Shown here piece after piece: positions 22,957 to 30,922 of a stretch of DNA of 31,018 nucleotides. The stretch's first letter is position 1. Each line of letters starts with the position of its first letter. The notes below the pieces were generated by a model. It did no database searches. It saw only the letters and a program-made list of their open reading frames with translations, and had not been told where the DNA came from. The stretch is from positions 1 to 31,018 of the forward strand of contig JAZJZK010000058.1 in NCBI GenBank assembly GCA_040389905.1, in the 5' to 3' direction. A program made the position numbers and the translations under genes. The stretch comes from Gemmatimonadota bacterium. GTDB taxonomy: Bacteria; Gemmatimonadota; Gemmatimonadetes; Gemmatimonadales; Gemmatimonadaceae.

Positions 22957-23571
22957 CTATTCAATCGCTGTCCCTATCGGTTCCACTCGGCGCGCATCGG
23001 GATGCACTCGATGCTCCAGCGCCTCGAGTTGATGGAGAATCGCGTCACCGTAGAACGTCTTGATATAGCGGGCCTGCGTTTGCGTGAGACGCCGAACCGC
23101 CCAAGAGAGATGCACGAAGTGCGGCTCGACGGGATGCGTCAGCGGGTGCATGCCGATTTCGTGCGGCAGTCGATTCCCCTTGCGCGTATTGCACGGGGAA
23201 CAGGCGGTCACGACGTTCGTCCATTCGTTCTTGCCGCCGCGCGACATGGGGATGACGTGGTCGCGGGTCAGTGACTCGCGCGGACGCAGTTCCATGACCG
23301 GGCGACCGCAGTACTGGCAGCGATAGTGATCGCGGGCGAACAGGAATGTGTTCGTCACCTGCCGCCGAAAACGGCGCGGCACGTGGATGAACTTCGTGAG
23401 CCTGATGACTTGCGGACGCGGCATAGAGAGCCGTTCAGATCGGACCAGCCGGTCTGTCTCGGCCTCGATGATCTCCGCCTTCCCGTCGATGACGAGGCGG
23501 AGCGCCCGACGCATGGGGACCATGGTCAGGGGTTCGAACGACGCGTTCAGTGCCAGGCATCCGACGATCAA
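22957..23571 (-). CDS. HNH endonuclease (McrA-like family)
   Basis: LNASFEPL, RDHYRCQYCG and TRDHVIPMSRGGKNEWTNVVTACSPCNTRKG. TTG start after a GGAGGG SD. Confidence 0.9.
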   Translation of the reverse strand: MIVGCLALNASFEPLTMVPMRRALRLVIDGKAEIIEAETDRLVRSERLSMPRPQVIRLTKFIHVPRRFRRQVTNTFLFARDHYRCQYCGRPVMELRPRESLTRDHVIPMSRGGKNEWTNVVTACSPCNTRKGNRLPHEIGMHPLTHPVEPHFVHLSWAVRRLTQTQARYIKTFYGDAILHQLEALEHRVHPDARRVEPIGTAIE

Positions 23572-23594
23572 TCGTCCCTCCGGCGTTCTTACCG

Positions 23595-23623
23595 AAGTTA
23601 CGGTGCTGCCGGAGTGCATACAA
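23595..23623 (-). promoter_or_regulatory. sigma70 promoter for the HNH gene
   Basis: Minus strand TTGTAT-17 nt-TAACTT, ending 23 nt upstream of the TTG start. Confidence 0.55.
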
Positions 23624-23641
23624 GTGAATAGCCGAAGATCG

Positions 23642-24979
23642 CTATGGCGCCGCGAGCCACTCCTGAAGGCGATCCGCACTTTCCTGCACGCGACGCGGCA
23701 GCCCGTGGTCCTCGTCGACCAGCATTCCGTTGCGAACGAGGACCCTTCCCGCGACGACGGTGAGCGACGCCTGCGTCCCAGCAAGCCCGAAGATCGCCGC
23801 GGCAATTGGATCATGAACAGGTGCACGGTGTGCAGGCAGCGGGAACGCGGTGAGGTCTGCGGCCTTGCCGACGTCGAGGGTGCCGATCTCGTTCTCGAGC
23901 CCCAGCGCCGTGGCGCCACCGAGGGTTGCGAGCCGGAGGGCACTCGCGGAGGTCACAGCACCGTGGTGCAGTTCGCGCGCATTCGCGACGAGCGCGGCGA
24001 GGCGTGCCTCGTCGAGGAGATCCATGCGATCGTTGCTGGCCACGGAATCCGTGCCGAGTCCAACACGGACCGATGCGCGCAAAAGCGCGGCAAGCGGTGC
24101 GATCCCATGACCAAGCTTGGCGTTCGAAGCGGGACAGTGCGCGACTGCGGCGTCGTGCGCCTGGATTGCCGCGATGTCTTCGGCGTCAACCCGCACGCAA
24201 TGAATCAACAACGGATGAAGCTCGAGTATCCCCAGGTCATCGAGGAGTGCGATCGGTGTCCGTGCGCGCGCTGGCGTCTCGATGCCACGGGCACTCAGTG
24301 CCGTCGCAAACGCTCCACGCCCCTCGGTGACAAGTGCGGATTCGAGGTCACTCTCCGCGATGTGGACGGCGATCGGAAGGCGCATCGTCCGCGCAAACGC
24401 GCCGGTGGCGCGAAAGAGCGCATCGGAGACCGTGTAGGGTGCATGCGGAGATACGCCCACGCGTACGAGCGCGGTCGCGCGCGTGAGCATCTCGGTCACG
24501 CGGGCTTCAAGTCCCGCGATGGCCTCGGCGCACTGTGCGGGGTCGGGGCCGAACACCTCGCGATAGCAGATGCCCCGCACGCCACGCTCGAGCATCGCAT
24601 CGAACCCCGCTCCGGTATCACCCGTATCTGCAAACGTCGTAATGCCCGAGCGCAGCCCTTCTTCGACGCCCAGTCGCGCAGCATCCAACAGCATACGTGG
24701 CGACATCACGGCACGGCGCGCAAAGGTGAGGCGCAGAATCCATTCACGGAATGCCAGGCCGTCGAGGAAACCGCGCATCGCGGTGAGTTCGAGGTGGCAG
24801 TGGGTGTTCACCAGGCCGGGCATCAACAGCGCCTCGCCGAGGTCGACGTCCTCTCCTCCTTCGGGCGCCGTTGCGCGCGGACCTCGGTAGACGATGCGTC
24901 CCTGCTCCTCCACGACCGTTCCGTCCGGAATGGGCGCAACCGAAACAGGGCAGACCCATCGTGCGTGGTACCGGACCAT
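23642..24979 (-). CDS. Metal-dependent amidohydrolase (MtaD/SsnA-like deaminase family)
   Basis: PGLVNTHCHL, SPHAPYT, HIAES, HCPASNAKL, LGTDS and GKAADL motifs. Start overlaps the PHP stop. Confidence 0.9.
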   Translation of the reverse strand: MVRYHARWVCPVSVAPIPDGTVVEEQGRIVYRGPRATAPEGGEDVDLGEALLMPGLVNTHCHLELTAMRGFLDGLAFREWILRLTFARRAVMSPRMLLDAARLGVEEGLRSGITTFADTGDTGAGFDAMLERGVRGICYREVFGPDPAQCAEAIAGLEARVTEMLTRATALVRVGVSPHAPYTVSDALFRATGAFARTMRLPIAVHIAESDLESALVTEGRGAFATALSARGIETPARARTPIALLDDLGILELHPLLIHCVRVDAEDIAAIQAHDAAVAHCPASNAKLGHGIAPLAALLRASVRVGLGTDSVASNDRMDLLDEARLAALVANARELHHGAVTSASALRLATLGGATALGLENEIGTLDVGKAADLTAFPLPAHRAPVHDPIAAAIFGLAGTQASLTVVAGRVLVRNGMLVDEDHGLPRRVQESADRLQEWLAAP

Positions 24980-25737
24980 CAGAAGGTCGCGCCGGTACGA
25001 GACCCGTGACGCGCCGGATCGTAGAGCGCATCGTCCGCAACGCCGAGGCTTCTCGTCAGCGCGAGTGGAACGAGGATGTTGCCGACCTGGTCGCGCCGGT
25101 GGCCATCGGATCCGAGCGAGAGGCGCACGCCAGACTGCGCCGCGCGTTGCACCAGACGGTCGTGCGGCTGATAGCGCGCGGATACCTCGAACGCGATGCC
25201 CGCCGCGAGCAGCGCTTTTACCGCACGTTCCTCGAGCGCCTCGGTCCACAGCTCGTGAGGATCCAAGCTTCGCAGTGGAAGTGGAACGAGGGTCGGATGC
25301 GCGAGCACGTCGACGGGCATTTCGAGGGCCAGCGCCTCGATCGATGCGACCTGCGCTTGCATGTAGGTCGCCACCGATACGCCGTGCGGAAGCGTCGTCG
25401 AGAACGAACGGAAGAAGGTGCCGTCGCGAAGACGAATGGAGTGCAACGACCCAATGCGGTGAGTGAAGCGCCGAACGACATGCTCTGGCAGTTCGCGCCA
25501 CAACCGGTCGTGCCAGCAGAACTCTCCCCCGCGCAGGACATCATGCTGCTCCAGATCGTCCAGATACGCCTCGATGGCCGCGATGGAGTCGACGGTCGTG
25601 GGCGCATCGCGCGAGATGTGATCGGAGACGGACACCCGCACACCAAGTTCTACTCCACGCGCCGCGACCTCGTGCACGGTCATCACTCCGTCCGAGTGAG
25701 TCGAGTGCGCGTGGCAGTCCGTGGGCAACCAGCTCAT
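24979..25737 (-). CDS. PHP domain phosphoesterase (HisK/YcdX-like)
   Basis: DCHAHSTHSDG, SDH, IGSLH, LAHP and GSDGH motifs. Confidence 0.9.
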   Translation of the reverse strand: MSWLPTDCHAHSTHSDGVMTVHEVAARGVELGVRVSVSDHISRDAPTTVDSIAAIEAYLDDLEQHDVLRGGEFCWHDRLWRELPEHVVRRFTHRIGSLHSIRLRDGTFFRSFSTTLPHGVSVATYMQAQVASIEALALEMPVDVLAHPTLVPLPLRSLDPHELWTEALEERAVKALLAAGIAFEVSARYQPHDRLVQRAAQSGVRLSLGSDGHRRDQVGNILVPLALTRSLGVADDALYDPARHGSRTGATF

Positions 25738-28088
25738 CGCGGCGGTGGGATTCGAAATGGGTTCGTATCCCGACGGGCGCGATTCGTATCCACCGCGGGA
25801 CGGGACGTGTCGCGCGGAGGACGCGTGGTGTCGCGCGGCGGGTTGATGCGGGGGATCGGCGTCGCGCCAGGTGTCAATCGCTGTGGACGGGAAAACACCG
25901 TCGAATCAGGTATGCGCGGCCGCGTCGTGTCCGGAGTGGGCGCCACCGGATATGGCGACGTCGTGGGGGGCCGGGTGGTCGCGCCGAATCCCGTGTCCGG
26001 GAATTGCACCACGGGAGGTGTGCACGTCTGCGAGGGATCTGTACCGGCGATGAAATACTCCGTGGCTTGTGCGCACCCCGTTGTCCAAAGCAACCCCGAT
26101 ACGGGATCGATTTGCCGTACGACAATTCCATCGGGGCGTGGCCAGTCAGGCGGCGCCGGCTTGCGGCGATACACCTCGCGCATGAAGGCGGTCCACGCGG
26201 GCGCGGCGAGCACGCCACCCTGCGCATTGCCCTTGATCTTCTGCGGTTTGTCGAGCCCCATCCAGACGCCGGCCACGAGGTCGGAGGTGTATCCGATGAA
26301 CCACACGTCCGCCCCGTCGTTCGTCGTTCCCGTCTTGCCGCCTGCGGGATAGTTGAACAGGCTGCCGACCGAACCTGCCGCCGTGCCGCGACGGATCACG
26401 TCCTTCATCATGCTGACCATGATCCACGCCTCCTCCGGCGACATGACGGGCACACGATTGACGGTGGGCTCCCAGAGCACGTCACCCTTCGCGTTCTCGA
26501 CGCGGATGATCGGCGTCGGGCTCGCGCGCGTGCCGAGCGTCGCGAAGGCCGAATAGGCAGCAATCATCTCGATGGGATAGACGTCCGCCGCACCGATGCT
26601 GATCGACGGATAGGGGGGAATGGGAGTCGTCAGCCCGAACTTCCGCGCCATGTCGATGACGCTCTGTGGACCGAGCTCCATGCCCACCTTGATGGCGATG
26701 ATGTTGCGCGACTGGTAGAGACCGCGACGCATCGGCATCGGACCTTCGAACTTGCCGTCGTAGTTCTGCGGAGTCCAGTCGCTTCCATCTGCCTGCGGAA
26801 CGGTGACCGGCGAATCGTCGACAATGTAGGACGGCGGCTTCCCGTTCTGTACCGCGTCCGCATAGACCACCGGCTTGAAGGTGGATCCGGGCTGCCGAAG
26901 CGCCTGAATGGCACGATTGAACTTGGAGTCGTCGAAGTCACGTCCGCCGACCAACGCGCGAACGGCGCCGGTACGCGGATCCATCGCGATGAACGAGCCC
27001 TGGAGGTACGGAGAATTCGCGGCAGCCGCCTCCCCTGCTCGCTCCGCCGCGCGCGACAGATACGACTCGAATGAGACATGTGTGTAATTGCCGAACTTCC
27101 CGGATTCGATCGCGCGCATCTGGTTCTCGAGCGCTCGTTCCGCGGCGGACTGGAGGTCGACATCGAGCGTCGTGAAGACCTTGAGTCCCTGCTCGTACAG
27201 CTTCTGCCCGAACTGGGTCTCGAGTTGCTGCCGAACCCACTCCACGAAGTATGGGGCGACATCTCCCGCTTCAGACTTGCGCGCGAGCTGCAGGGGATAG
27301 GCCTTCGCGAGACTCGCGTCGGCGTCGCTGATGGCACCCTGCGAGCGCATGACCTCGATGACGGTATTGCGGCGCTGAATCGCGCGCTCGGGAAACCGGC
27401 GGGGATTATATCGTTCCGGTGCCTTTGGAAGGCCGGCGAGAAGCGCCGCCTCGGGAAGGTTGATGTCGCGCGCAGACTTGCCGAAGTACCGCTGGGCCGC
27501 GGTTTCGACGCCGAATGCGCCATTGCCCAACGAGATCTGATTCATGTAGAGCTCGAGGATCTTGTCCTTCGAGTACTTGGCTTCGATCGCGCGGGCGACC
27601 TTCATCTCCTTCAGCTTACGTACGAGCGATTTTTCACGCGACAACCGCTCGGGAAAGATGTTGCGCGCGAGCTGCATCGTGATCGTCGAGAAGCCCTCGG
27701 CAAAGCTCCGGACCTTGATGTCCGCCCAGAGCGCGCCCGGAATGCGTAGAAAGTCCACGCCTTTGTGCGAATAGAAGCGCTTGTCTTCATTCTGGACCAC
27801 GGCGTTTTTCAGGATCTCGGGAATCTGGCCGATCTTGAGCAGCGTGCGCCGCTCGAGGCCGAGCTCGGCGACGAATCGCCCATCGGCAGCATAGAGCTTC
27901 GAGGTCTGCCGAGGTTGATACTCGTCGAGTACTTCGACCGATGGACACGCGCCCGCTCGACAGACCAGCGCCCAGCTCGCGTACCCGAAACCTGCTCCGA
28001 ACGAAACGAGAAAAGTCAGCGCCACGGCAAGCCCGCGGGACAAACGCGGGTTCTTGCGGCGGAAATTCTTCGAGAACGGGAAATCCAT
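25734..28088 (-). CDS. Class A penicillin-binding protein (PBP1A family)
   Basis: TM anchor, transglycosylase EDKRFYSH and STITMQLARN, transpeptidase STFK, SRN and KTGT motifs. Confidence 0.95.
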   Translation of the reverse strand: MDFPFSKNFRRKNPRLSRGLAVALTFLVSFGAGFGYASWALVCRAGACPSVEVLDEYQPRQTSKLYAADGRFVAELGLERRTLLKIGQIPEILKNAVVQNEDKRFYSHKGVDFLRIPGALWADIKVRSFAEGFSTITMQLARNIFPERLSREKSLVRKLKEMKVARAIEAKYSKDKILELYMNQISLGNGAFGVETAAQRYFGKSARDINLPEAALLAGLPKAPERYNPRRFPERAIQRRNTVIEVMRSQGAISDADASLAKAYPLQLARKSEAGDVAPYFVEWVRQQLETQFGQKLYEQGLKVFTTLDVDLQSAAERALENQMRAIESGKFGNYTHVSFESYLSRAAERAGEAAAANSPYLQGSFIAMDPRTGAVRALVGGRDFDDSKFNRAIQALRQPGSTFKPVVYADAVQNGKPPSYIVDDSPVTVPQADGSDWTPQNYDGKFEGPMPMRRGLYQSRNIIAIKVGMELGPQSVIDMARKFGLTTPIPPYPSISIGAADVYPIEMIAAYSAFATLGTRASPTPIIRVENAKGDVLWEPTVNRVPVMSPEEAWIMVSMMKDVIRRGTAAGSVGSLFNYPAGGKTGTTNDGADVWFIGYTSDLVAGVWMGLDKPQKIKGNAQGGVLAAPAWTAFMREVYRRKPAPPDWPRPDGIVVRQIDPVSGLLWTTGCAQATEYFIAGTDPSQTCTPPVVQFPDTGFGATTRPPTTSPYPVAPTPDTTRPRIPDSTVFSRPQRLTPGATPIPRINPPRDTTRPPRDTSRPAVDTNRARRDTNPFRIPPPR

Positions 28089-28168: not shown

Positions 28169-29485
28169 ATGGACACGACAGGCGTACTCGAAGAGCTGGA
28201 GTGGCGGGGGCTGGTCTATCAGCGTACCGAGGGGGTGGCCGACCTCCTTTCGAAGGAGGGAGCGTCCGCATACATCGGATTCGACCCCACGGGAAGCAGC
28301 CTGCACGTGGGCAGCCTCCTGGTCATCATGATTCTCGTGCATCTGCAGCGCCATGGGCATCGCCCGGTCGCGCTCGTTGGTGGCGGCACGGGCATGATTG
28401 GCGATCCCAGCGGGAAAACCGTTGAACGCCAGCTGCTCACACCGGAAATCGTTGCGGCGAACACGGCTGCTATTCGGGCACAGCTCGAGCGCTTTCTCGA
28501 CTTCGACGGACCGAGCGCCGCGCGCATGCGTGACAACGCCGCGTGGCTGACGCCGCTCGGCATGGTGGAGTTTCTCCGTGATACGGGAAAGCACTTCACC
28601 GTGAACTACATGCTCCAGAAGGATTCCGTCCGCTCGCGGATGGACGCCGGCATTTCGTTCACTGAGTTCTCGTACATGCTGCTCCAGGCGTACGATTTCC
28701 TCGAGTTGCGCCGGAGGGATGGTGTGACGCTCCAGCTTGGCGGAAGCGACCAATGGGGCAATATCACAGCGGGGATCGAGTTGATTCGCCGCGTGGACGG
28801 CGTGGAAGCCCACGGATTGACCATTCCACTCGTGACCAGCTCGACGGGCGCGAAGTTCGGAAAGACGGAGGCGGGCGCCGTGTGGCTGGACGCCGAGCGG
28901 ACATCGCCGTACGCGTTCTACCAGTTCTGGCTCGCGACGGAAGACCGGGACGTGGGCCGGTATCTCCGCTTCTTCACGCTGTTGGACCGGCCTGAGATCG
29001 AAGCACTCGAGGCCGGGGCGATCGCGGCTCCGGAACAGCGCATCGCCCAGCGTGCGCTGGCGCGGGACGTCACGCGTCGCGTGCACGGAGACGTCGCGCT
29101 TCAGGCTGCGGAACAGGTGTCCGGTTTCTTTTTCGGCGGGTTGGATCCGAATGAGTTGACGGAGGCCGCGTTCGCGATCTTGAGAGCTGATTCGCCGTTC
29201 GCAGACGTGTCGGCGTCGGCAATCACCAGCGACGCGGATAGCGGTGCCTTCGACGTGCTCAAGCTGCTGACGGCCTCCGGCCTGGCTGCGTCGAACGGCG
29301 CCGCGAAGCGACTGCTGGAGCAAGGCGGAGTTTCCGTCAACAAGCGCAAGGTGGCGGCGTCGGAGCGCAGCATCGCGCGCGACGCTGCGCTGTTGGCGGG
29401 CGGACACATCGTGATTGGCAAGGGAAAGCGCGATCACGCGCTGCTGCGAGTTGCGTTCACCGAACCCAACGATGCCGTGGTCTGA
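28169..29485 (+). CDS. tyrS: Tyrosine--tRNA ligase
   Basis: GFDPTGSSLHVGS, YMLLQAYDF, GGSDQWGNI, KFGKT and C-terminal S4-like domain. Confidence 0.97.
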   Translation: MDTTGVLEELEWRGLVYQRTEGVADLLSKEGASAYIGFDPTGSSLHVGSLLVIMILVHLQRHGHRPVALVGGGTGMIGDPSGKTVERQLLTPEIVAANTAAIRAQLERFLDFDGPSAARMRDNAAWLTPLGMVEFLRDTGKHFTVNYMLQKDSVRSRMDAGISFTEFSYMLLQAYDFLELRRRDGVTLQLGGSDQWGNITAGIELIRRVDGVEAHGLTIPLVTSSTGAKFGKTEAGAVWLDAERTSPYAFYQFWLATEDRDVGRYLRFFTLLDRPEIEALEAGAIAAPEQRIAQRALARDVTRRVHGDVALQAAEQVSGFFFGGLDPNELTEAAFAILRADSPFADVSASAITSDADSGAFDVLKLLTASGLAASNGAAKRLLEQGGVSVNKRKVAASERSIARDAALLAGGHIVIGKGKRDHALLRVAFTEPNDAVV

Positions 29486-29502
29486 TTGAGCTTCGGCTTC
29501 AG

Positions 29503-29532
29503 TTGACGGTAGTCGCCGGGCCGCGCTAAACT
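29503..29532 (+). promoter_or_regulatory. sigma70 promoter of the ankyrin gene leader
   Basis: TTGACG-18 nt-TAAACT. Confidence 0.7.
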
Positions 29533-29537
29533 TCGTT

Positions 29538-29668
29538 GGCGCGCAGGACGCCCCCCGTCCGCGGGAAGGACCGAGTCCACCTGGGCAGTCAGCGCACGAC
29601 AACGGTTCACGCGAACCTCCTTTCGCCCGACGAATGCGGACCCCGGGCACTCTTCAAGGAGGCTCGTC
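29538..29668 (+). ncRNA. Candidate structured cis-regulatory 5' leader RNA (unassigned family)
   Basis: Nested stems, an anti-SD/SD hairpin and GTCCGC/GCGGAC long-range complementarity; see findings. Confidence 0.6.
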
Positions 29669-30922
29669 ATGCCCGTTCGTCACCTTCCCGACCGTCCTGA
29701 TGTAGAGCAACTCCGGCATCAGGCCAAAGACCTGCTGAGGGAGTTCCGCGGGGGAAACCCGGCTGCAATCGCCGATTTCGCTGACCATCATCCAGAGCGA
29801 ATCGCTGCCGCGACCGCAAAGCTCGCCGACGCGCAGTTGGTGCTTGCCCGCAGCTATCAGTGCTCGAGCTGGCCGCTGCTCGTGGGCGTCTGTCATGCGA
29901 TCGCCTCGATGACATGCGAGGACTTTGCTGCGCTTCGCGAGGTTGTAACGGCACATCCGTCGCTGCTCGGACGGCCGACAGATTCAGCTCAGTTCGGATG
30001 GCGTGTCGCGGTGACGCACGCGGCGCAGGAGGCGATGGTCCTGATCATTGAGAGACTCAGCCGGAACGGTTTCAGGAACTTCGACGCGGTCGTAGCGGAC
30101 CGCGAACAGCGCCACTGGCTTGACACCGTTCGCGTACTCGGAAGGCTCGGCGCTCGATTCCCGCGCGACGCGATCGGCGGCGCTTTGGAAGTGCTCGATG
30201 GTTCCAACATCGCGTTCATGGTGGAGATTGCCGGCGATATCAGGGACGAGAACGGCGAATGGCGGTCGCGAGCTGCCCTCACGCTCGAGACGTATGCACG
30301 AAATCCCGCTGGCAAACACCGTATTCTCGAGACGATGGTCGATCAGGGCATTCCCTTTCCTGACACTCCCACGATGGCGGTTCATCGAGGGCGGCTCGAC
30401 CTGCTCGAGCAGCATCTCGTTCGCGATTCTCGTTTACTCGTGCGGACGTTCGCGCACTGCGACATCTGGCCCTCGGACCTGGGCTGTCACGCGGATGAAT
30501 CGCTGGCGCTGCATGGAGTGCCGCTGGCCGGCGCGACACTCTTGCACATGGCTGTGGACTACGAGGAGATCGATGTCGTGCGCTGGCTGCTCGACCACGG
30601 CATGGACGTGAATGTCCGTGCCGATGTCGATGCGGACGGCTTTGGTGGGCACACGCCGCTCTTCAACTGTGTGATCACGTGGAACGCAGGCCACCGCGAT
30701 ACGTCGATCACCACGTTCCTGCTCGACCGCGGTGCGGACCCGAACGCCATGGCGTCCATTCGGAAGGGGCTGGCCTTCGCGAAGGACCCCTCCGTCCACG
30801 AATACCGAGACGTAACGCCGGTGGAACTCGCGCGCCGATTCCATGAGCCGTCGTATGTCCACAAACCATCGGTCAAGATCATCGAGGAGCGCGGCGGACG
30901 CGCGGGTGAACGCGTTAACTGA
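29669..30922 (+). CDS. Ankyrin-repeat protein with N-terminal LPDRPDVEQLRHQAKDLL helical domain
   Basis: TLLHMAV...LLDHGMDVN and GHTPLF...LLDRGADPN ankyrin repeats; strong AAGGAGG SD. Confidence 0.88.
   Translation: MPVRHLPDRPDVEQLRHQAKDLLREFRGGNPAAIADFADHHPERIAAATAKLADAQLVLARSYQCSSWPLLVGVCHAIASMTCEDFAALREVVTAHPSLLGRPTDSAQFGWRVAVTHAAQEAMVLIIERLSRNGFRNFDAVVADREQRHWLDTVRVLGRLGARFPRDAIGGALEVLDGSNIAFMVEIAGDIRDENGEWRSRAALTLETYARNPAGKHRILETMVDQGIPFPDTPTMAVHRGRLDLLEQHLVRDSRLLVRTFAHCDIWPSDLGCHADESLALHGVPLAGATLLHMAVDYEEIDVVRWLLDHGMDVNVRADVDADGFGGHTPLFNCVITWNAGHRDTSITTFLLDRGADPNAMASIRKGLAFAKDPSVHEYRDVTPVELARRFHEPSYVHKPSVKIIEERGGRAGERVN

Follow-up and report, generated by a model that had tools for sequence, protein, structure and literature searches.

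The described system closest to the leader analysed here is the Escherichia coli rpsO operator, whose product, S15, is reported to recognise the rpsO pseudoknot alone and to shut down its own production (PMC3985624). In that operator (PMC4137082 and PMC3616713) and in the present leader, a pseudoknotted 5′ leader lies at the translation start, two hairpin domains dock onto each other, and the gene's own product is the repressor; for the present leader, docking and repression are proposed. The conserved structure of rpsO/S15 leaders overlaps the translation start, and so does that of the present leader, in which helix P5 covers the Shine–Dalgarno (SD) sequence. The two systems differ in that rpsO is a ribosomal-protein gene, whereas the genes found here encode ankyrin, LRR, DUF1835 and other proteins; in that the sequence and the seven-helix, two-pseudoknot fold of the present leader are unrelated; and in that binding is shown for S15, whereas the binder proposed here is a detachable 70-aa domain with many partners and up to five copies per genome. 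The leader most likely works like the rpsO/S15 operator without being a member of that class.

A further likeness, as an analogy only, is to the corrinoid (cobalamin) riboswitches, whose L5–L13 kissing loop likewise connects a domain on the 5′ side with a hairpin on the 3′ side, close to the expression signals (PMC10327014). The present leader differs in having neither an Rfam match nor B12-related genes, and its kissing strand lies in the loop above the anti-SD helix, not in the SD itself. "Protein binding candidate" motifs, as defined in a 50-genome survey (PMC11109978), are 5′ UTR motifs whose gene product likely binds its own mRNA, which is also what we propose; that class usually precedes recognised nucleic-acid-binding proteins, whereas the domain encoded here has neither a named family nor a known fold.

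The original prediction regarded the RNA as undescribed, and the database comparison agreed. Rfam 15 returned no match up to E 10 over positions 29503–29870 and none at the gathering score in nine diverse member loci. For the motifs of Weinberg et al. 2010 that carry no Rfam number (Rhodopirellula-1, Solibacter-1, Soil-1, Gamma-cis-1 and Desulfotalea-1), the initial alignment rows were unrelated, and the four core words of the leader were absent from the eight supplementary files searched, in which alignment gaps could mask a word. The main texts of PMC5737381 (Weinberg et al. 2017) and PMC11109978 contained neither "ankyrin" nor DUF1835, and their supplements could contain a prior listing; term searches of the main text of PMC2864571 and of the supplements of PMC8632094 and PMC2864571 were negative. 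No published description was found in the open-access literature, judged by titles and abstracts. The sequence comparisons point to a genuine family of regulatory RNAs that the catalogues searched do not list and that is linked to a domain without a name.

Locus and fold of the leader

The window, i.e. the whole stretch of 31,018 nucleotides that was analysed, carries the leader between tyrS and a gene for an ankyrin-repeat protein (Table 1), and all elements named in the original prediction were present in the sequence where it had placed them. The predicted promoter was the sole such site found in 500 nt, with shuffles giving 0.0, and the transcription start is predicted just 5′ of P1. Of 98 family members, 63 have a TTG..xAxxxT pattern 5′ of P1, and in 62 of these it ends 4–10 nt before P1; among 221 control windows, 9 contain the pattern. 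The distance from the end of P5 to the start codon was 0–8 nt in all 98 parsed members. The search for intrinsic terminators yielded no terminator-like site within 29300–29800. On the minus strand, the open reading frames at 22957–28088, presumably encoding an HNH endonuclease, an amidohydrolase, a PHP-domain protein and penicillin-binding protein 1A, are divergent from tyrS.

Table 1. Coordinates of the leader, its helices and the adjoining features in the window.
Feature	Position	Strand	Remarks
tyrS	28169-29485		5′ neighbour of the region; Pfam tRNA-synt_1b
Sigma70-type promoter	29503..29532	+	TTGACG 29503-08, 18 nt, TAAACT 29527-32
Whole structured 5′ leader RNA	29538..29668	+	No Rfam match; covariation; covariance model R1
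P1 hairpin GGCG/CGCC	29538-41 / 29549-52 (29538..29552)	+	Loop holds PK1 5′ strand
Pseudoknot PK1 CAGG/CCTG	29544-47 / 29580-83 (29544..29583)	+	Covariation
P2 (CC/GG)	29554..29564	+	7-nt loop presenting kissing strand GTCCGC 29557-62
P3 hairpin GGAC/GTCC	29568..29578	+	3′ of nearly invariant A
Optional P4 hairpin GGTTC/GAACC	29604-08 / 29613-17 (29604..29617)	+	Mainly window's subfamily
Anti-SD strand of P5	29612..29622	+	Pairs with 29656-29666, one A.C mismatch
P6 GCCCG/CGGGC	29625..29648	+	Loop presenting kissing strand GCGGAC 29636-41
Shine–Dalgarno AAGGAGG	29656..29662	+	Within P5
417-aa gene	29669..30922	+	N-terminal domain, unnamed middle, ankyrin repeats aa 282-360
N-terminal four-helix basic domain, unnamed	29678..29890	+	aa 4-74; conserved R9, R16, K20, R61, W68

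Covariation was analysed in a sequence-only alignment of 53 deduplicated leaders (A3), which was also the basis of the covariance model R1; L056 (deletion) and L102 (insertion) were left out of the latter. The hold-out alignment (A5) comprised the window and 41 members outside the training set. P1 and P6 were parsed per sequence in 98 members, with shuffled and/or swapped partners as controls. In MAFFT alignments P1 was ~64% paired and the two hairpins spanned 57–74%, values that are low because loop lengths shift the register. In A3, 89.5% of cells were paired and 21 of 31 pairs changed on both sides, compared with 10.0 in shuffles; none of 500 shuffles scored as high, in a control that treats the sequences as unrelated. 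Such shuffle controls are blind to relatedness, and many of the loci are close kin. By these comparisons, window positions 29538–29668 are a member of a conserved RNA family with two covariation-supported pseudoknots.

The 5′ domain departed in part from the original prediction. The outer stems drawn there (29541–44/29592–95 and 29547–53/29583–90) were paired in 43.3% of cases in relatives and were replaced by P1 and PK1. The 4-bp P1 stem was found in 91 of 98 members, compared with 35.9 for shuffled and 61.3 for swapped partners. PK1, which had been overlooked although the kissing pseudoknot had been recognised, was 96.7% paired in A3 and 84.9% in A5, with compensatory changes at 4/4 pairs in both. 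A CCCG/CGGG stem had been assigned to a region that does pair, but the actual stem (P2) has 2–3 bp and a loop of seven nucleotides that presents GTCCGC. It was 95.3% paired in A3, varied as TC/GA, AC/GT and CGC/GCG, and included the top MI-APC pair. The GGAC/GTCC hairpin (P3) stood as proposed, being 100% paired in the 53 leaders with 3/4 pairs compensatory.

The 3′ domain and its contact with the 5′ domain were largely as foreseen. The 7-bp core of the anti-SD/SD helix P5 was 92.3% paired in A3, with both sides changed in five of seven pairs. The inner stem P6, 74.3% paired in A3, where it is misregistered, was found in 88 of 98 members by the per-sequence parse, compared with 57.3 for swapped partners. 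The kissing helix GTCCGC/GCGGAC was 99.1% paired in A3 and 98.8% in A5, and covaried with compensation at 6/6 pairs (variants GTTCGC/GCGAAC, GTCCAC/GTGGAC, GCCTGC/GCAGGC, ACCCGC/GCGGGT, TTCCGC/GCGGAA, GTCTCG/CGAGAC and ACTCGC/GCGAGT). As this helix is absent from R1, selection by the model gives it no advantage. Its sequence conservation reaches 92–100% per position although any pairing would suffice structurally, which is expected of a recognised surface. G–U pairs are tolerated within the helices of A3, all seven helices are mutually compatible and able to form simultaneously, and the linker between the two domains varies in sequence and in length (14–40 nt). In a block alignment (n = 98), a blunt test for helices with shifting register, no other family-wide helix with at least four stacked pairs at 80% was found besides the kissing helix.

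The leader had also been described as almost fully pairable. The stems are indeed present, but the single-sequence fold of the window leader (-59 kcal/mol) is at chance level (z = -0.84; 38 of 200 shuffles as good), and folding energy was rejected as evidence. In the nested ensemble, the probability of anti-SD/SD pairing exceeded 0.5 in 58% of 98 members and was 0.15 in the window, and the SD was paired 0.82 of the time on average over the 98. Given this modest anti-SD/SD pairing, closure of the SD would depend on docking.

P4 was present in 64 of 94 close homologues, compared with 8.4 expected from linker shuffles, a count that may be inflated by common descent; after deduplication it was found in 15 of 31 (3.1 expected), with three GATTC/GAATC changes, and outside the window's subfamily in 11 of 51 (4.0 expected). 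It competes for the outer anti-SD strand of P5. The computed energies were -19.7 kcal/mol for full P5+P6 and -14.6 for P4+P6, to which the remaining 5-bp P5 core adds 1.6.

The N-terminal domain and the reach of the family

The domain (~70 aa) has at least 2,179 relatives among 50% cluster representatives. Its structure model comprises four helices with a mean pLDDT of 84.6. No solved relative was found by sequence (best E 0.027) or with Foldseek (best E 4.1), and these comparisons with solved structures gave no match to a known RNA-binding domain fold. No curated family was reached with the window's domain, and the ESM Atlas returned matches only to unnamed clusters, under 0.9. Pfam PF20066 (Glyoxalase_8, "glyoxalase superfamily protein") is weakly similar to some members and a possible distant relative: it matched 7 of 46 domain sequences in alignment A2 (best E 5.5e-4) and not that of the window. 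Family searches for PF20066 genes, in 251 genomes and 5 records, and for PF08874 gave no match, not even in controls, and carry no weight. Lysine or arginine occupies the equivalents of R16, K20 and R61 in 94–95% of N-terminal copies, and W68 is invariant. The domain carries a net positive charge in 89% of 95 proteins, compared with 3% of 88 for the rest of the protein. Several proteins contain tandem or split copies; the basic residues of helix 1 are mostly missing from the eight copies that are internal repeats.

The earlier suggestion that this helical module occurs on unrelated proteins was borne out. Its fusion partners include ankyrin, ankyrin+ClpN, LRR, DUF1835, TIGR03067 and T2SSF+T2SSE ATPase, as well as unnamed families of 180, 300 and 412 aa. 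At L310:1-1503 (-) in G420, a single reading frame follows the RNA and encodes the domain, T2SSF and a secretion ATPase of type II/IV. The window protein was rejected as a Dot/Icm ankyrin effector: it scored 11–19 bits against NCBIfam AnkH, AnkG, AnkY and AnkX, whose cut-offs are 500–1400, and the similarity was limited to the ankyrin repeat.

The leader had been proposed to accompany homologues that share the N-terminal domain, as a portable pair of RNA and domain, and the surveys agree with both points. A query with the first 80 aa gave 160 loci, the best 80 of which came from Gemmatimonadota, Acidobacteriota, Planctomycetota, Armatimonadota, Rhodothermales and Ca. Cybelea records. A search of the window's own phylum found domain genes in 43 of 201 genomes and added more distant ones. 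The leader was upstream of the domain gene at 128 of 130 loci (one ended by a contig edge, one, L095, without leader). This count leaves out the window and G182 (unpublished); some records enter it twice, and most of its loci are closely related.

Scanning the window's own genome with R1 gave four strong copies, all preceding the domain (partners ankyrin, ankyrin+ClpN, TIGR03067 and another ankyrin type), and one weak partial match. In 150 own-phylum genomes there were 74 matches, in 43 genomes, and 69 preceded the domain; among the 38 matches independent of the protein collection, 33 did so, two of them at broken genes with weak domain scores. The five own-phylum exceptions were two truncated RNAs (L214, L222) and the three weakest matches (25–32 bits). 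All 14 RNA matches in Planctomycetota, from 10 of 150 genomes, and all four in plasmid records preceded the domain. In Acidobacteriota the domain occurred in 18 of 151 genomes, and the 18 regions held 12 strong and two weak RNA matches, one copy that was diverged by eye, and three without. With a DUF1835-branch protein as query, the RNA was directly upstream at 59 of 60 metagenome loci, all outside the R1 training set, and the 60th was ended by a contig edge. Exact look-up of ten DUF1835-branch proteins led to Pseudomonas (aeruginosa, fluorescens and syringae groups), Variovorax, Thalassospira, Halomonas and Halopseudomonas, and the RNA was also found on Azospirillum, Methylosinus and Gemmatirosa plasmids. 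By sequence matching, the carriers thus include Gemmatimonadota, Acidobacteriota, Planctomycetota, Armatimonadota and Pseudomonadota, Pseudomonas among them.

The spread is patchy; the phylum of G204, for example, gave one carrier in 150 genomes, G204 itself. Common upstream neighbours were not found (one pair among 59 loci), and integrases or the like were not shared. In viral contigs, the first query gave one chance match without the domain (L001) and the second none, while a pattern search gave eight, including a full RNA with domain (L234) and a truncated RNA (L230). The DUF1835 branch was reached from L228 (OQ572412.1, 19892-23074), a record named "Pseudomonas phage Y11" and marked unverified that contains the RNA and a DUF1835 gene. 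Over the part that was compared, it shows 99% similarity to L237, a locus of P. aeruginosa type, and it is possibly host DNA in a phage assembly.

Proposed mode of action

We favour, with a probability of about 0.55, a portable autoregulation module in which the domain would bind its own leader and lock the SD-hiding fold. The kissing helix would dock the 5′ domain onto the P6 loop and keep P6 and P5 shut (OFF), and the first domain of the encoded protein would bind this docked state and block initiation. When the protein is scarce, the RNA would open (ON) by breathing or, in the window's subfamily, via P4, which would occupy the outer anti-SD strand and favour the ON state; a surplus of protein would shift it back to OFF. 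RNA and domain would together form a self-limiting cassette that has been grafted onto repeat proteins and enzymes. We prefer this reading because the RNA follows the domain alone, across partners without a common pathway. At the level of sequence, the fold, the promoter position, the coverage of the SD, the coupling to the domain and the basic face of the domain are established. Against autoregulation, basic helices likewise bind DNA or membranes, L056 has an intact gene without an anti-SD, and L095 and L185 have intact domains without the RNA. A small molecule could just as well be what a conserved pocket binds.

A metabolite, ion or signalling nucleotide might indeed bind the P1/PK1/P2/P3 core, with docking opening or shutting the SD helix and the domain doing a separate job such as targeting or oligomerisation. 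This riboswitch, which the original prediction had suggested by the term riboswitch-like, would suit the compact, doubly knotted core with its nearly invariant nucleotides, an RNA that begins at the predicted transcription start, the alternative fold P4 in one subfamily, and the precedent of a regulatory kissing loop in corrinoid riboswitches (PMC10327014). We consider it unlikely, and less likely than autoregulation, because the N-terminal domain is the sole feature common to the downstream genes, whose partners have no evident pathway in common. Riboswitches usually precede several unrelated gene types; here, no full-length RNA was seen before a gene lacking the domain, and the clear exceptions were truncated RNAs.

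Since the leader adjoins the N-terminal domain, C-terminal swaps carry both, and linkage alone explains part of the coupling. The leader could accordingly be a static or physically gated damper, responding to temperature, Mg2+ or a general trans-acting protein, that travels with the domain by adjacency only. C-terminal replacement fusions do keep leader and domain together, and the SD is mostly paired even in the nested ensemble. A damper, however, needs neither two covarying pseudoknots nor a kissing sequence conserved across phyla, and drift should have uncoupled RNA and domain more often than observed, which makes this explanation rather improbable.

Expression data were available for L237. 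Summed RNA-seq depth in X24 was ~115 just upstream and ~225 where the leader ends and the gene begins. It was highest across the leader plus the gene's initial 300 nt, beyond which it fell gradually, about tenfold, to ~16 by 900 nt into the gene. X24 is one unstranded run and shows coverage, neither start nor mechanism; it revealed no transcript start at the leader and no sharp drop in depth 3′ of it. Together with the absence of terminator-like sites from the window region, the latter speaks against a transcription attenuator. In X22 and X23, 148 of 150 and 13 of 14 reads, respectively, fitted in part only, which makes these runs uninformative, and X14 consisted of contigs. The depth peak, strict cis adjacency and the tandem or split domain copies would fit a lasting ribonucleoprotein, or a nascent domain that holds on to its own message in cis as a means of localisation or assembly; pairing of the SD would then be incidental or a lock for a single round. 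We regard this as very doubtful, as there is no processing site or terminator to free an RNA and the fall in depth is gradual.

A self-cleaving ribozyme or a DNA-level element (operator or recombination site) is scarcely credible: nested pseudoknots are typical of small ribozymes and the distribution is patchy with up to five copies per genome, but there is no Rfam ribozyme match, the element has a fixed place, 3′ of the promoter and 5′ of the start codon, the SD is part of a helix, G–U pairs are tolerated, and no neighbours such as integrases are common to the loci.

Returning to autoregulation by the domain, a tentative and speculative extension is that these proteins are one-component translational regulators in which the fused partner (ankyrin, LRR, DUF1835 or ATPase) serves as sensor for the RNA-plus-domain feedback. 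With an idle partner, the domain would keep its own mRNA shut; with the partner on its target, the domain would release the mRNA and synthesis would rise to demand. Since the paralogues of a genome have the kissing-helix sequence in common, they could regulate one another as a small regulon.

If the autoregulatory reading holds, the leader represents a new variant on autogenous translational control. As a regulatory RNA it is uncatalogued and intricately folded, with members in several phyla, among them Pseudomonas species that are tractable, and it offers a testable role for an unnamed domain of at least 2,179 protein clusters. If the domain binds the RNA, the two would be a new case of RNA–protein recognition without a known fold. 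They would also make up a natural feedback cassette (~130 nt plus 70 aa) that could be plugged into synthetic circuits to set protein dosage. If a small molecule binds instead, the leader would define a new class of riboswitches whose gene set is unusual.

Diverged, truncated and clustered copies

The most diverged leaders, with kissing pairs ACCCGC/GCGGGT and GTCCGA/TCGGAC, precede an unnamed ~180-aa family (L191, L192 and L195). An A+T-rich diverged copy in Vibrio campbellii (L298:2300-2500, NZ_CP050465.1) is visible by eye and was missed by R1, so the range of the family is underestimated. Besides the intact domains without RNA at L095 and L185, diverged ones were found at L141, L193 and L194.

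The short leader at L056:1419-1503 still has P1, P2, P3 and P6 as well as the kissing helix, but neither the linker nor the anti-SD nor the 3′ strand of PK1, and it is followed by an intact 430-aa gene; unless it is an assembly error, it is a natural test of the OFF helix. At L214:230-320 (G085), the RNA ends just after P4 and runs straight into a gene without a start codon, which we take to be PilC-type; the junction reads like a deletion scar or an assembly join. The gene after an intact or partial RNA is frameshifted or deleted at L179, L205, L220 and L273, and from such sequences decay of the RNA-plus-domain module seems common. The maximum number of copies per genome was five RNA matches, in G096, and G107 (C6:237945-264625) carries three RNA-plus-domain genes within 27 kb of one contig.
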